Sequence record: MZ189261.1
Reading direction: 5' to 3' (one strand)
Source of the DNA: Escherichia phage S143_2
Length of the DNA stretch: 64,000 nucleotides
Positions 4,749 to 62,221 of the stretch are shown one piece after another. The notes under the pieces were generated by a model that saw nothing but the letters and a program-made list of their open reading frames with translations, ran no database searches and was not told the origin of the DNA. The first letter of the stretch is position 1, and each line of letters opens with the position of its first letter. The position numbers and the translations under genes were made by a program.

Positions 4749-5018
4749 TTATTTCTGTGCAATTTCGATGTAAGTTTTCAAAATATTTTGCCAATTAGGC
4801 ATACCTTCTTGGACATATGCCGGAGAACCGTCTTTGTTTTTGAATGATGCAAGTTTATCAGTGGCCCAATAACCTTTAGCTCGAGCTTCAGAATCAACTT
4901 TCATCCATACTTTGTTGAAGGCGTTACCATTAACTTTTGCACCATATTTTTCTACCAACTTAACTGCTTCAGCTTCTAGAACTTTTAAAGTATCTCGTAA
5001 GAAACGTGCTTTAGTCAT
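4749..5018 (-). CDS. Hypothetical protein, 89 aa (antisense to flanking late genes)
   Basis: ORF with strong RBS (AGAGGAG 8 nt upstream) and its own early-type promoter; occupies the 23/24 intergenic slot where T4 carries segD. Confidence 0.55.
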   Translation of the reverse strand: MTKARFLRDTLKVLEAEAVKLVEKYGAKVNGNAFNKVWMKVDSEARAKGYWATDKLASFKNKDGSPAYVQEGMPNWQNILKTYIEIAQK

Positions 5019-5048
5019 TTTGTTTACTCCTCTGTAGTTGATAAGTTT

Positions 5049-5078
5049 ATAGTATCACATACCAAATACGTTGTAAAC
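5049..5078 (-). promoter_or_regulatory. Early sigma70-type promoter (-35 GTTTAC, 18-nt spacer, -10 TACTAT)
   Basis: T4 early-promoter pattern on - strand upstream of ORF 4749..5018. Confidence 0.5.
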
Positions 5079-5084
5079 AATCTT

Positions 5085-5092
5085 TATAAATA
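5085..5092 (+). promoter_or_regulatory. Late promoter TATAAATA (gene 24)
   Basis: Exact motif 28 nt upstream of gene 24 ATG. Confidence 0.55.
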
Positions 5093-5119
5093 ATCTATAT
5101 CACATAAGGAAAAAATGCA

Positions 5120-6403
5120 ATGAGTAAAATCCAAAAATTATTGCGTGAATCTACAACGTCTACTAGCAACTCAATTGGTCGCCCAAATCTCGTTGCTTTG
5201 ACTCGCGCTACGACTAAATTAATATATTCTGACATTGTAGCAACACAAAGAACTAATCAACCTGTTGCTGCTTTTTATGGTATCAAATATCTTAACCCAG
5301 ATAACGAATTCACATTTAAAACTGGTGCTACTTATGCTGGCGAAGTTGGATATGTAGACCGAGAAAAAATTACTGAGCTCACAGAAGAATCAAAAGTCAC
5401 ACTAAATAAAGGCGATTTTTTCAAATATAATAATATCGTCTATAAAGTGTTAGAAGATACACCATTTGCAGATATTCAAGAAAGTGATCTAGAATTAGCT
5501 CTTCAGATTGCAGTCGTTCATTTAAAGGTACGGTTATTTTCAGATGCAGCGGTAACAAGCAAATTTGAAAGTTCTGGTAGCGAAATTTCTGATGCAAGAT
5601 TCCAGATTAATAAATGGCAAACTTCGGTCAAATCTCGTAAACTTAAAACAGGTCTCACGGTTGAATTAGCGCAAGATTTGGAAGCGAATGGATTTGATGC
5701 CCCTAACTTCTTAGAAGATTTGCTTGCTACTGAAATGGCTGATGAAATTAATAAAGATATTCTTCAGTCTTTAATTACTGTATCGAAACGCTATAAAGTT
5801 ACTGGAATTACTGACACCGGATTTATTGACTTGAGCTATGCGTCCGCTCCAGAAGCAGGTCGTTCGTTATATCGAATGGTGTGTGAAATGGTATCACACA
5901 TTCAAAAAGAGACAACTTATACTGCAACGTTTTGTGTAGCCTCAGCTCGTGCAGCTGCTATTCTTGCTGCTTCCGGTTGGTTAAAACATAAGCCAGAAGA
6001 TGACAAGTATCTTTCACAAAATGCTTATGGATTCTTGGCAAATGGATTACCTCTTTACTGCGATACCAACAGTCCGTTAGATTATGTTATTGTGGGTGTT
6101 GTAGAAAATATCGGCGAAAAAGAAATTGTAGGGTCCATCTTTTATGCTCCATACACTGAAGGAGTAGATTTAGATGACCCGGAACATGTCGGTGCATTTA
6201 AAGTTGTAGTTGATCCAGAAAGCTTGCAACCGTCTATCGGATTATTGGTTAGATACGCTTTATCAGCAAATCCTTACACAGTAGCAAAAGATGAAAAAGA
6301 AGCGAGAATAATTGATGGCGGGGACATGGATAAAATGGCAGGACGTTCAGACTTGTCTGTTTTACTCGGTGTTAAATTGCCTAAAATCATCGTTGATGAA
6401 TAA
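5120..6403 (+). CDS. 24: Head vertex protein gp24
   Basis: 427 aa (T4 gp24 427 aa); TATAAATA 28 nt upstream; gp23-paralog position. Confidence 0.9.
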   Translation: MSKIQKLLRESTTSTSNSIGRPNLVALTRATTKLIYSDIVATQRTNQPVAAFYGIKYLNPDNEFTFKTGATYAGEVGYVDREKITELTEESKVTLNKGDFFKYNNIVYKVLEDTPFADIQESDLELALQIAVVHLKVRLFSDAAVTSKFESSGSEISDARFQINKWQTSVKSRKLKTGLTVELAQDLEANGFDAPNFLEDLLATEMADEINKDILQSLITVSKRYKVTGITDTGFIDLSYASAPEAGRSLYRMVCEMVSHIQKETTYTATFCVASARAAAILAASGWLKHKPEDDKYLSQNAYGFLANGLPLYCDTNSPLDYVIVGVVENIGEKEIVGSIFYAPYTEGVDLDDPEHVGAFKVVVDPESLQPSIGLLVRYALSANPYTVAKDEKEARIIDGGDMDKMAGRSDLSVLLGVKLPKIIVDE

Positions 6404-27249: not shown

Positions 27250-27290
27250 TTTATTCTCCAGATGTTTAAGTTGTTTGTTGGTACAGGTCT

Positions 27291-27319
27291 ATAATAACAA
27301 AACCTGTACCAAAGTAAAC
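27291..27319 (-). promoter_or_regulatory. Early promoter (GTTTAC / TATTAT)
   Basis: Upstream of ORF 26884..27249; -10 lies inside 8-bp inverted repeat GGTACAGG/CCTGTACC. Confidence 0.5.
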
Positions 27320-27323
27320 ATTT

Positions 27324-27796: not shown

Positions 27797-27822
27797 GCAC
27801 AAAAGGGAGACCGAAGTCTCCC
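27797..27822 (-). terminator. Terminator (GGGAGAC-UUCG-GUCUCCC + U4) upstream of rIII region
   Basis: Same 18-nt hairpin as at 4721, 42910, 51229; U tract follows on - strand. Confidence 0.55.
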
Positions 27823-28170
27823 TAAAATTATGCAACAACCTTTCCAAAACGAGAAGCATCATCTCGAAGAACTGCACGTGCTCTGCGCATGATCTTCTCA
27901 ACTGTTTGATTAATACGAGAGTTCGACCCACGCTTGTATCCAGCGCGTTTAGAGGTACCATCAACTTTCTTTTCTACTGCTTTCTTTGCTTTAGCTTGTT
28001 TTGCCATTATAAATTCTCTTTAAATGAAAATGCAGGACTTATTGACATTGCCTGCTCAAGCCCTCAAGGGGAACATAGGTTTTGGATATTTAACGACAGG
28101 ATAACCATAAACCCGTCATCATACCGACCACGACTTACACAGCTAACATTTTGCTGACGCATGATAGTAA

Positions 28171-31162: not shown

Positions 31163-31190
31163 TTCTATTTCCTCATTTGTTGGTAGAGTT

Positions 31191-31220
31191 ATAGTATCAC
31201 AACTCCACCATGTTGTAAAC
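31191..31220 (-). promoter_or_regulatory. Early promoter (GTTTAC / TACTAT)
   Basis: Upstream of ORF 30926..31162. Confidence 0.45.
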
Positions 31221-32988: not shown

Positions 32989-32989
<1 letters not shown>

Positions 32990-33288
32990 TATTTTATTCC
33001 TAAGAAAGTTTCAAGAATACGAATGTTATGCTCGCGCCGGTCTTTATTAATTTCAGCAACGTTTTTATTAATTGACGTACTTCTAACGTTTGAAGAAATA
33101 AATTTAATCATATGACTTTTGAGTTGTTGCAAATCCAACCCTTTTTCTTTAGCAGCTTTACGAAGAGCTTTACCTGCTTCATCTAGTGCCTTTGCTGCAT
33201 CTTTGTCATAATTGCCGAGTGACATTCCACGACAGATATCAATATACTCATCAGACCGTTTGATGTAATTCTCTAGTAATGTTTTCAT
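32989..33288 (-). CDS. Hypothetical protein, 99 aa
   Basis: ORF with RBS GAGGAAAT and early promoter at 33317..33346. Confidence 0.5.
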
Positions 33289-33316
33289 TTAGATTTCCTC
33301 AATTATCCATAGGAGC

Positions 33317-33346
33317 ATTATACTCTGCTCCTGAGAGTTTGTAAAC
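33317..33346 (-). promoter_or_regulatory. Early promoter (GTTTAC / TATAAT) with inverted repeat around -10
   Basis: Upstream of ORF 32989..33288; arms AGGAGCA/TGCTCCT flank the -10. Confidence 0.5.
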
Positions 33347-39820: not shown

Positions 39821-39907
39821 ATAGTCCTCAGTATAGGTTGATAGACATTACTCCAAACGGGATAGTATTTATCCCGTTAATTTATTATACACTTTTAAAC
39901 TGAAGCG

Positions 39908-42100: not shown

Positions 42101-42135
42101 TTTATTCTCCGCTTCACTTTTGATTTGATAGGGCT

Positions 42136-42165
42136 ACTATAACATAGCCCTATCTTGTTATAAAC
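42136..42165 (-). promoter_or_regulatory. Early promoter (GTTTAT / TATAGT) with perfect 10-bp inverted repeat around -10
   Basis: Arms GATAGGGCTA (42127..42136) and TAGCCCTATC (42145..42154); upstream of ORF 41852..42100. Confidence 0.5.
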
Positions 42166-42905: not shown

Positions 42906-42927
42906 AAAAGGGAGACCGAAGTCTCCC
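42906..42927 (-). terminator. Terminator after gene 32
   Basis: GGGAGAC-UUCG-GUCUCCC followed by UUUU on - strand RNA, 7 nt after gene 32 stop. Confidence 0.65.
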
Positions 42928-42933
42928 AATTTA

Positions 42934-43833
42934 TTATAGACCAGCTAACAGGTCATCGAGGTCACCATCGTCAGAAGACGAGGAACTCATGAAGTCATCT
43001 TCAGTTTTTGCAGAACTAAAGGCTTCCATGTCTTTATCAAAATCGTCGAGGTCAGAAGCAACTTTATCTGCAACAGAAGCTGCGGCAGCTGCTGCACCAC
43101 CAAGAGCGGCAGTACCAAGAACTTGATTAAATTTAGTATTCAGTTCTTCAAACGATTTGAACTTATCTTTAGAAGTCATTTCAGAAAGGTCAACCATTTG
43201 TTCGAACAATTCTTTCTGGAAAGATTCATCATCAATGTTTGGAATCGCAGATTGATTCAGGAATTTAGATTCGTCGTAGTTACTGAAACCAGAAACCTGT
43301 TTAACTTTCAGCACAAAGTTAGCACCTTCCCATGGGCAAGTTACATCAACAGGAGTTTCACCCATTTCAGTATCGACTGCAATCATTGCATTGATTTTGT
43401 CCCAAATCTTTTTACCAAAACGGTATTTGAATACTTTACCTTCATTATCTGGAGCTTGTGGATCTTTAACAACCAGGATATTAGCCCAATAAGAAGTTTT
43501 ACGTTTCAGTTGAGAATATTCTGTTTTGTTTGTATTGTACAGATCATTTTTACTAATGTACTGACATACCGGACAAGAGTCATAATCGCCGTGTGTAGAT
43601 GAACAGGTTTCAATATACCATTTGCCGTTTTTCTTGAACCCGTGGTTAACAAGAATTGCAAACGGAAGTGCGTCATCTGTTTTTGCCGGCAGGAAACGAA
43701 TTACCGCTTGACCATTACCGGATGCATCGAGTTTCAGCTTCCATTCACCTTTATCTTCTGAAGAGAAACCTTTGTTACCATTCAGTTTAGCCATCTGAGC
43801 TGCAAGGTCTGCGGTACTTTTACGTTTAAACAT
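42934..43833 (-). CDS. 32: Single-stranded DNA-binding protein gp32
   Basis: 299 aa; N-terminus [17 protein letters not shown] and zinc ligand pattern match T4 gp32; acidic C-terminal tail. Confidence 0.95.
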
Positions 43834-46108: not shown

Positions 46109-46140
46109 ATGAACCTCTTGTTCAGTTAGTCAACTTGACT

Positions 46141-58443: not shown

Positions 58444-59076
58444 TCACAGTACGTTAGTTACAAGGGTAATGATTTCTTTGGACACATTAGGGAAGTCAAT
58501 GTAAGTATATTTACCACCGATCTTAATCTTAACATCATTTTCAAGAGAAGTAAACAGTTTTGATTCGGTTTCTGACATGTTGTATGCAAATATTCTAAGA
58601 GAACCATCTCGACGAATTTCGATCTGACGAATACCTAGAACTCGTTTTGCAAATCGAACTTCCAAGTTACTACGGTTTTCACCAATTTCTTTAACTTCAA
58701 CTTTATCTTTAATATTTTCAAAAACAAAGTTTGCTAGTTCATGCATTTCAGGAGTAACTCCACGTGCTTTTCTAGTGTTACGTTTCTGAAGAAGTTCTGG
58801 AGCATTTTCTTGGGCAAAGAGGTCTGCAGCTTTTTGGATAATATCCATTGCTTCGCCTGTTGCTATAAGTCCATCACCAGATTTTTCGACTAAACCTTTC
58901 TTAATCAATACGCCAATGTTAGAGTTAACAACCGATGCATTGTATTCCGCTTCCAGAGCTTCACGGACATTGGCAGCAGTGGTGAAGTTGTTCTTAATGA
59001 TATAAACCATTATTGCAGCAGTTTTTTCATTCAGAGCGTTTTCGGAAGCTTTGATGATGTAAGTAACTTTAGACAT
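58444..59076 (-). CDS. motA: Middle-transcription activator MotA
   Basis: 210 aa (T4 MotA 211 aa); similar N-terminus and central GLLIKKGLVEKSGDGLI segment as remembered; early promoter upstream. Confidence 0.8.
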   Translation of the reverse strand: MSKVTYIIKASENALNEKTAAIMVYIIKNNFTTAANVREALEAEYNASVVNSNIGVLIKKGLVEKSGDGLIATGEAMDIIQKAADLFAQENAPELLQKRNTRKARGVTPEMHELANFVFENIKDKVEVKEIGENRSNLEVRFAKRVLGIRQIEIRRDGSLRIFAYNMSETESKLFTSLENDVKIKIGGKYTYIDFPNVSKEIITLVTNVL

Positions 59077-59115
59077 TTTATTTCTCCAATTTGGTTGTTT
59101 TGTTTTGATAGGTCT

Positions 59116-59144
59116 ATAATATCATGTTTGAAGCACATGTAAAC
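59116..59144 (-). promoter_or_regulatory. Early promoter (GTTTAC / TATTAT) for motA
   Basis: Upstream of motA ATG 59076. Confidence 0.5.
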
Positions 59145-59165
59145 TGTTTTGTGAGAAAAATGCAC

Positions 59166-59185
59166 AAAAGGGAGCTTCGGCTCCC
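59166..59185 (-). terminator. Hairpin/terminator between gene 52 and motA
   Basis: GGGAGC-CGAA-GCUCCC on - strand RNA followed by UUUUG; note the UUCG orientation is on the + strand here. Confidence 0.4.
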
Positions 59186-59261
59186 TAATCATGTTTGTCC
59201 AACCAATACAGCCAAATCACTAGTGCAGCTATTGCACCGAGAAATCCTAAGGCTAGGGCAC

Positions 59262-61377: not shown

Positions 61378-61421
61378 GCTAATTTCCTCAATTGATTAAT
61401 GTTTTTGTAATCCATGAGAGC

Positions 61422-61451
61422 ATTATACTCTGCTCTCAAGAGTTTGTACAA
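61422..61451 (-). promoter_or_regulatory. Early promoter (TTGTAC / TATAAT) for ndd, with inverted repeat around -10
   Basis: Arms GAGAGCA/TGCTCTC; near-identical to promoter at 33317..33346. Confidence 0.5.
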
Positions 61452-61654: not shown

Positions 61655-61682
61655 TTTGTGTTCCTCATGTTTAAGTAGGACT

Positions 61683-61712
61683 ACTATACCATAATCCTAC
61701 CTTGATGTAAAC
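61683..61712 (-). promoter_or_regulatory. Early promoter (GTTTAC / TATAGT)
   Basis: Upstream of ORF 61454..61654; 6-bp arms GTAGGA/TCCTAC flank -10. Confidence 0.45.
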
Positions 61713-61901
61713 AATTAAATTACATTAAAATATGTTAAAGCCAACCATGTTCCAGTGAACGAACATGCGATGTAAAAACCAGTATCACAAATTGTTCTTA
61801 GTACAATAAGTGCATTTTTCATAAGTACCTCAATGCAATTGAAAATATTATACAAATCATAGGGATACTAAGCAACCATATTCCGATCCACATTTTAGAG
61901 C

Positions 61902-62165: not shown

Positions 62166-62191
62166 GATGTTATCCTCTTTTAGATAGGACT

Positions 62192-62221
62192 ACTATATCA
62201 TAGTCCTACTTAGTTGTAAAC
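62192..62221 (-). promoter_or_regulatory. Early promoter (GTTTAC / TATAGT)
   Basis: Upstream of ORF 61902..62165; 7-bp arms TAGGACT/AGTCCTA flank -10. Confidence 0.45.

Follow-up and report, generated by a model that had tools for sequence, protein, structure and literature searches.

Inverted repeats that enclose the -10 box of early promoters in a Mosigvirus (RB69-like) T4-type phage are real, significant and beyond chance expectation, and by their sequence features the sites match the PeSL (promoter-early stem-loop) cassettes, a kind of element that has already been published (Arbiol 2010, Comeau 2014). We put a probability of about 0.7 on a PeSL-type composite cassette, in which a strong T4-type sigma-70 early promoter is combined with a read-through RNA hairpin most likely marking or protecting the 3′ end of the upstream message. 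As the kind of element is known, novelty is confined to the new members in a Mosigvirus genome. To these the analysis adds comparative evidence pointing to selection on the sense strand, most simply at the RNA level, together with the absence of classical terminator features in the subclass that overlaps the -10. The window, by which we mean the whole 64-kb stretch of DNA that was analysed, has its early genes on the minus strand; the genes concerned lie there, and all sequences below are read on that (sense) strand. The 1 kb around 33311..33332 shares 99.7% identity with Escherichia phage vB_EcoM-ZQ3 and about 160 other RB69-like phages, and one relative, SA35RD, is classified as Mosigvirus, Straboviridae.

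Six of these inverted repeats had been claimed from the letters alone, and all six are present where they were placed. The arms listed for them all exist, several being longer than described (8 bp rather than 7 at 61415-61438, 8 bp at 62185-62208 and 11 bp at 27278-27312). At 33311..33332 (-), upstream of the 99-aa ORF 32989-33288 (-), the hairpin AGGAGCA-gagTATAA-TGCTCCT (7 bp, 8-nt loop) encloses the -10 TATAAT at 33322-33317 (MFE -12.2, z -2.4). Its -35 hexamer GTTTAC (33341..33346, (-)), the first base of which is overlapped by the stop codon TAG of the upstream ORF, is followed by aaactctc up to the 5′ arm. The ndd promoter carries the closest copy, an 8-bp hairpin TGAGAGCA-gagTATAA-TGCTCTCA at 61415..61438 (-) enclosing the -10 TATAAT at 61427-61422 (MFE -14.1, z -3.7), with its -35 TTGTAC at 61451-61446 (-) and then aaactct up to the 5′ arm. 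These two focal copies had been put at about 90% identity; their near identity stands at the slightly lower figure of 87%, or 34 of 39 positions from TACAAACTCT to ATGGAT. Of the five differences, four make up two compensatory exchanges, one from A-T to G-C and the other from G-C to A-T, and the remaining one creates an additional pair; the ndd leader has an 18-nt insertion, relative to the other copy, ahead of the common ATTGAGGAAAT.

A 10-bp hairpin, GATAGGGCTA-tgtTATAG-TAGCCCTATC, at 42127..42154 (-) encloses the -10 TATAGT (MFE -18.7, z -6.0) behind a -35 GTTTAT (42165-42160, (-)) that is followed by aacaa; its T4 counterpart is the hairpin of the frd.1 promoter. At 62185..62208 (-) the 8-bp hairpin TAGGACTA-tgaTATAG-TAGTCCTA likewise encloses a TATAGT, with the -35 GTTTAC at 62221-62216 and an MFE of -13.5. 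Upstream of the ndd.1-like ORF, the hairpin GGTAGGATTA-tggTATAG-TAGTCCTACT at 61674..61701 (-), whose arms GTAGGATTA/TAGTCCTAC form 9 bp with one U·G on the sense strand, encloses another -10 TATAGT (-35 GTTTAC at 61712-61707, (-); MFE -15.9, z -4.2). The longest stem, 11 bp with a 13-nt loop between TTGGTACAGGT and ACCTGTACCAA, lies at 27278..27312 (-), encloses the -10 TATTAT (MFE -20.8, z -5.7; -35 GTTTAC at 27319-27314, (-)) and has the hairpin of the gene 30.7 promoter as its T4 counterpart. A seventh member, absent from the earlier list, was found at 31181..31210 (-): TGGTGGAGTTG-tgaTACTA-TAACTCTACCA, with two G·U pairs (MFE -16.9, z -3.6) and its -35 GTTTAC at 31220-31215 (-). Its T4 counterpart is the early promoter Pe133295 (cd.3).

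In the two main families the parts follow a constant order: a -35 (GTTTAC, TTGTAC or GTTTAT), a spacer of 5-8 nt, a 5′ arm of 7-10 bp, an 8-nt loop consisting of three bases and TATAA or TATAG, and a 3′ arm that begins with the final T of the -10 box. The predicted promoters themselves consist of GTTTAC (or TTGTAC, GTTTAT), a 17-18 nt spacer and TATAAT, TATAGT, TATTAT or TACTAT. The loop is not a recognition loop of one set size, being 8 nt in the two homologous families and 13-15 nt in the element at 27319 and in T4 and Karamvirus counterparts. Among the 16 well-formed early promoters in the window, seven have the -10 enclosed by a hairpin of 7-11 bp, with an MFE of -12 to -19 kcal/mol on promoter segments of 35-37 nt. 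All seven fall below the 1st percentile of control 36-nt segments (-11.6 kcal/mol; mean -3.5), and p is at most 0.01 in comparison with shuffled sequences in which the -10 was retained; on segments of 51-55 nt their MFE is -12 to -21 kcal/mol and their RNA-fold z is -2.4 to -6.0. At 61665-61715 and 27268-27322 (-) the predicted structure has in addition an outer helix between UGUUUA of the -35 region and UAAACA or AAACA of the leader, which takes in the -35 box and may be a chance product of the A-rich leader consensus.

The surroundings are equally regular. A co-directional ORF lies upstream at 7/7 sites, its stop codon ending 10-25 nt ahead of the 5′ arm and often overlapping the -35, and the next ATG follows 13-37 nt past the 3′ arm at all seven. 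The Shine-Dalgarno sequence starts 5-25 nt beyond the 3′ arm and is unpaired in the predicted structures of all seven sites. The hairpins were found only in the sense orientation, 3′ of co-directional ORFs.

Other early promoters of the window are arranged differently. At two of them, 35935 and 34752, a 5-bp hairpin lies in the spacer; the inverted repeats, CCACA/TGTGG (35935-35900, (-)) and ACACC/GGTGT (34752-34720, (-)), have an MFE of about -8 kcal/mol, and promoter constraint and structure are confounded in them because the 3′ arm overlaps the TG of the extended -10. Three promoters that lack a hairpin around the -10 (59144, 42878 and 27766) are each preceded, 25-45 nt ahead of the -35, by a separate intrinsic terminator of canonical form. 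These terminators, at 59169-59186, 42910-42927 and 27804-27823 (-), combine a GC-rich stem, (A)GGGAGC or GGGAGAC, with a UUCG or CGAA tetraloop (TTCG or CGAA in the DNA), and TTTT follows. The same 11-mer, TATAATAAATT, stands directly before each of two different hairpins, GGGAGAC-ttcg-GTCTCCC and AACGGGATA-aatac-TATCCCGTT (42928-42938 and 39879-39889, (-)). In a divergent intergenic region, a palindrome AGTCAAgTTGACT at 46128-46140 (-) directly follows the -10 TACTAT of the rnh-type promoter 46170 and would fall at the 5′ end of that promoter's transcript; in T4 and RB33 the counterpart promoters instead have the -10 surrounded by an AT-rich stem, AGATTT/AAATCT.

The sequence-only reading had argued from near-identical copies that the palindrome itself is under selection, and comparison with relatives bears this out well beyond the two focal copies. 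A search for counterparts in IMG/VR through the 99-aa ORF gave one locus only. Pattern scans, in which the arms were left free and flanks and loop were fixed, used TACAAACTCT-N8-GAGTATAAT (IMG/VR), CAAACTCT-N8-GAGTATAAT (metagenomes) and GTTTAC-N15-TGNTATAGT (IMG/VR). The first family comprises 27 distinct sequence variants in IMG/VR, and 19 distinct T4-like arm pairs once the metagenome matches are included; the second has about 20 members in IMG/VR. Unrelated contigs that matched the pattern supplied a natural null: their 58 arm pairs have 0-4 Watson-Crick pairs of 8, and the 19 T4-like pairs all have 7-8. In the second-family scan, stem lengths are distributed geometrically from 0 to 5 in chance matches and run from 6 to 14 in T4-like ones. 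In an ungapped alignment of 39 distinct elements (T4, Dhakavirus, metagenomes), standard pairs occupy 97.4% of stem cells; shifting the 3′ partner by 1-3 columns lowers this to 34-50%. The 97.4% is inflated, unlike the diversity of pair types, by pre-selection of the elements for at least 6 Watson-Crick pairs of 8. Changes on both sides occur in 7/8 pairs, and the covariation score of 0.689 compares with 0.320 ± 0.023 in shuffles (0/500). The arms thus retain complementarity in relatives and do not vary independently, and the alignments show that complementarity itself is under selection.

The layout also recurs at counterpart promoters in other genera, where the hairpin is kept and the arms are largely different. 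T4 has it at five promoters (motB, dmd, cd.3, 30.7 and frd.1), the motB element reading GTTTACaaactcttGGGACCAgagTATAATGGTCCC and the dmd promoter having a stem of 12-14 bp; the cd.3 promoter is annotated in RefSeq as early promoter Pe133295. Within Pe133295, 14 bp of the T4 RefSeq (133300-133313) are the inverted complement of the earlier published sequence; they form the loop between the arms GGTAGAG/CTCTACC, and the difference may reflect either corrected sequencing or a true inversion of the loop. The ndd promoter of Dhakavirus dhaeg has CGAGAATCA/TGGTTCTCG, with one U·G, and the Karamvirus counterpart of the 42165 promoter has AGGGCTAT/ATAGCCCT.

Mismatches in the stems distinguish the two strands. 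Stems were re-detected irrespective of mismatch type, to avoid a bias toward G·U. Among internal non-Watson-Crick pairs on the sense strand, about 13 independent events are G·U or U·G and 1-3 are A·C, of which one is clear (element L060, position 7), another sits beside the loop (position 1 of L043 and L060) and the third, in L064, is ambiguous; counted by cell, there are 26 G·U and 5 A·C. The excess of G·U has a binomial p of about 0.006 under a 1:1 null and of about 0.02-0.09 under a 1.6:1 mutation-bias null. As a control for such bias, sense-strand polymorphisms of the C/T and A/G kinds number 366:230, an upper bound on mutational bias because coding structure inflates the ratio. At four-fold sites of minus-strand ORFs of at least 150 aa, T occurs 1758 times and A 933, and G 364 and C 405. 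The sense RNA is predicted to fold more stably than the antisense in 43/45 elements (means -14.9 and -11.1 kcal/mol), and G·U pairs persist across diverged genomes, the U·G of ndd.1 being common to the window, L002 (SA35RD), L008 and L032.

These observations bear on whether the repeat acts as DNA. The sequence-only reading preferred a DNA element, be it a dimeric protein site or a cruciform. In the form considered here the protein would be of phage or host origin, or else a cruciform or non-template-strand hairpin would expose the -10 as a single strand, and either would set these promoters apart as a separately regulated subclass. Such an element would account for the -10 lying exactly in the loop, with its last T opening the 3′ arm in both main families, and for the -10 being TATAAT or TATAGT in hairpin promoters and TACTAT in most hairpin-less ones. 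The arms, however, are highly diverse, have no recognition sequence in common and, unlike protein sites, covary, and the mismatches favour G·U over A·C, whereas a cruciform needs pairing on both strands. Arms of 7-11 bp with loops of 8-13 nt form cruciforms poorly. Nor is the geometry fixed, loops ranging from 8 to 15 nt and the hairpin lying in the spacer or upstream at some counterpart and sister promoters. A cruciform or palindromic protein site was rejected on the conserved half-site and the two-strand pairing, neither of which was found, with the significance of the latter moderate under the mutation-bias null. The asymmetry seen in the G·U pairs would equally arise if the non-template DNA strand formed a hairpin tolerant of G·T; in the sigma-70 open complex, though, the region from -16 to -25, which holds the 5′ arm, must stay duplex, and this disfavours the non-template hairpin, as does the variable hairpin position. 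We therefore consider any DNA-level role very unlikely. The G·U bias, the diverse arms and the flexible position favour instead what the sequence-only reading had offered as its second option, an RNA hairpin that would form only in read-through from upstream.

Somewhat less improbable, if still a long shot, is that the fold has no function: perfect palindromes would arise by hairpin-templated (quasi-palindrome) correction and spread by cassette recombination, making the covariation a product of mutation and not of selection. Quasi-palindromes are known to undergo templated correction, a process first described in T4, and the cassettes are clearly mobile or recombinogenic, standing before at least nine different genes and showing a precise insertion or deletion relative to SA35RD. 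Templated correction gives perfect Watson-Crick arms, however, and here G·U pairs persist that are common to diverged genomes; hairpins are also kept at counterpart promoters across genera with largely different arms, and solely in the sense orientation 3′ of co-directional ORFs. The least probable of these alternatives is a translational switch of the T4 e, soc, 49 and I-TevI type, whereby read-through RNA would fold and block downstream translation and RNA from the internal promoter, lacking the 5′ arm, would be translated. Its topology is the same, the promoter lying inside the hairpin so that folding is limited to read-through RNA, and the 3′ arm ends just 5-25 nt ahead of the Shine-Dalgarno. 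Against it, the Shine-Dalgarno or start codon is inside the helix at 0/7 sites, and the 18-nt insertion in the ndd copy pushes the ribosome binding site farther off. An RBS-sequestering leader hairpin was accordingly rejected, the Shine-Dalgarno being outside the helix at all seven sites.

An intrinsic terminator is the reading that database software has given to some of these elements. In the SA35RD record WebGeSTer/TransTermHP labels three of the hairpins as rho-independent terminators: the one before ndd, the one before the ndd.1-like ORF and the one before the ORF next upstream. No T-run follows the seven stems, the first 10 nt holding 1-4 U, the loops are of 8-13 nt, and a consensus terminator scan of the sense strand flagged none of the seven hairpins; a classical intrinsic terminator was rejected on these three grounds. 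Since a U-tract is lacking, the label of terminator, including that given by software in GenBank, is not established for the subclass overlapping the -10. An Rfam search of the whole 64 kb brought no family, tRNA included, to threshold; our search of the literature on T4 3′-end or terminator mapping found nothing usable, and a review of T4 transcription makes no mention of such hairpins at the early promoters. The sole experimental terminator test in the literature concerned a different, G/C-rich stem of RB49 (PMC2839356).

The reading that we prefer, a PeSL-type composite of promoter and read-through RNA hairpin, would work as follows. The RNA hairpin would be written into those positions of the promoter that are free in sequence, with the 5′ arm in the spacer (about -16 to -25), the extended -10 and -10 as the loop and the 3′ arm in the discriminator (-7 to about +1/+3). 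We infer RNA to be the folded molecule; the usual geometry of a promoter would put the start site about 7 nt beyond the -10. On this placement the promoter's own transcript would start past the 3′ arm and so would never contain the hairpin; the sequence-only reading had put one arm downstream of the start, and with the 3′ arm at these positions essentially no hairpin would form in that transcript. Folding would occur only in RNA reading through from the co-directional upstream gene. There its most likely role would be to mark the upstream message's 3′ end or to protect it, whether by attenuating or pausing read-through, by blocking 3′ exonucleases, or by both, and neighbouring early gene cassettes would thereby be insulated from one another. 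As the hairpin occurs at the -10, in the spacer or upstream of the -35, its position relative to the promoter is flexible, which fits an independent RNA element accommodated in very short intergenic space and not a part of the promoter mechanism.

A more specific and tentative proposal, which we hold to be possible but clearly on the unlikely side, is that the hairpins form a distinct class of U-tract-less RNA elements overprinted on promoters, which would be non-terminators acting as 3′-end protectors or processing signals in read-through RNA. If this were true, the upstream cistron could be shielded once the RNA had been cleaved at the ribosome binding site close downstream, or an incoming polymerase could be paused and dislodged so that the strong promoter is not occluded, and the hairpins would in effect be a dedicated insulator between T4 early gene cassettes.

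The composite cassette also appears to move. The first-family cassette stands ahead of at least nine unrelated genes in different phages, including ndd, motB and the 99-aa ORF, and the roughly 40-90 bp of conserved cassette sequence could serve as homology for cassette shuffling. A sister cassette provides the insertion/deletion evidence, which concerns promoter 59144 and not the two focal copies: in SA35RD a 71-aa ORF lies between two direct copies of the cassette GTTTAC...TATTATagac (4872-5260), and in the window (59060-59150, (-)) the ORF is precisely absent and a single copy, promoter 59144, stands directly upstream of motA. This is the pattern that would be expected from recombination between PeSL copies.

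A suggestive sequence pattern is thereby placed in the known PeSL family, and the more exotic DNA-level readings are not supported. PeSL cassettes have been proposed to drive gene shuffling in T4-type phages. Selection of the stem as a sense-strand fold, which would most simply be an RNA one, gains further evidence from the covariation and the G·U asymmetry. The result is relevant to the way in which early transcripts of T4-like phages are delimited and stabilised, and to the annotation and engineering of therapeutic phages.

Several known systems invite comparison. Inverted repeats at promoters occur in the DNA-hairpin promoters of the phage N4 virion RNA polymerase and in the single-strand promoters of conjugative plasmids; in the former a DNA hairpin is recognised by a dedicated polymerase, and in the latter a duplex promoter is rebuilt from single-stranded DNA. 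The present elements differ from both in having an ordinary duplex sigma-70 promoter and evidence that points toward RNA. With intrinsic terminators they share a stable hairpin just past a gene's stop codon, but those have a T-run and a loop of 3-5 nt, and here there is no T-run and the loop is of 8-13 nt; the window's own canonical terminators (59169-59186, 42910-42927 and 27804-27823) have TTTT, unlike the hairpins that enclose a -10. The T4 e, soc, 49 and I-TevI leaders (PMC3014915) resemble the present sites in having a promoter within the hairpin, so that only upstream transcripts fold, but they sequester the Shine-Dalgarno or AUG and have late promoters, whereas the present sites have an early promoter and leave the ribosome binding site outside the helix. 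The repeats at T-even internal-protein loci (Repoila et al. 1994, cited in PMC2839356) are alike as far as that description goes, with T4-early-promoter repeats, AT-richer stem-loops of variable size and shuffled small genes.

The closest match is the PeSL itself, which has five parts, namely an upstream stop, an AT-rich region, a sigma-70-like early promoter, a stem-loop and a downstream Shine-Dalgarno/ATG, and five subclasses by stem-loop position, the commonest of which place it between the two promoter boxes or over the -10 box (Arbiol et al. 2010, PMC2839356). G-T pairs are marked in the PeSL figure of that paper (PMC2839356). PeSLs were later extended to T4/PST and KVP40/nt-1, with TTTACW-N17-TAYWAT as the T4/PST promoter and AGNA-loop-TCNT as its stems (Comeau et al. 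2014, PMC4122927). The present sites differ in that PeSLs have been published for RB49/phi1, T4/PST and KVP40/nt-1 and not for RB69-like phages, and in that the stem tested as a terminator is the G/C-rich one of RB49, the stems here being without a U-tract. A text search of both papers (PMC2839356, PMC4122927) returned no mention of RB69-type phages, covariation or compensatory change, and neither paper analyses covariation or strand asymmetry. At the level of sequence, all the defining features of a PeSL are present. The T4/PST stem AGNA...TCNT fits TAGGACTA/TAGTCCTA; the upstream DNA is AT-rich, with sigma-70/T4-early boxes predicted at a 17-bp spacing; a stable stem-loop that allows G-T pairs overlaps the -10; all seven sites are intergenic, between an upstream stop and a downstream Shine-Dalgarno/ATG; and, as in the published cases, the element is repeated before small ORFs in plastic early regions, with cassette insertions and deletions.
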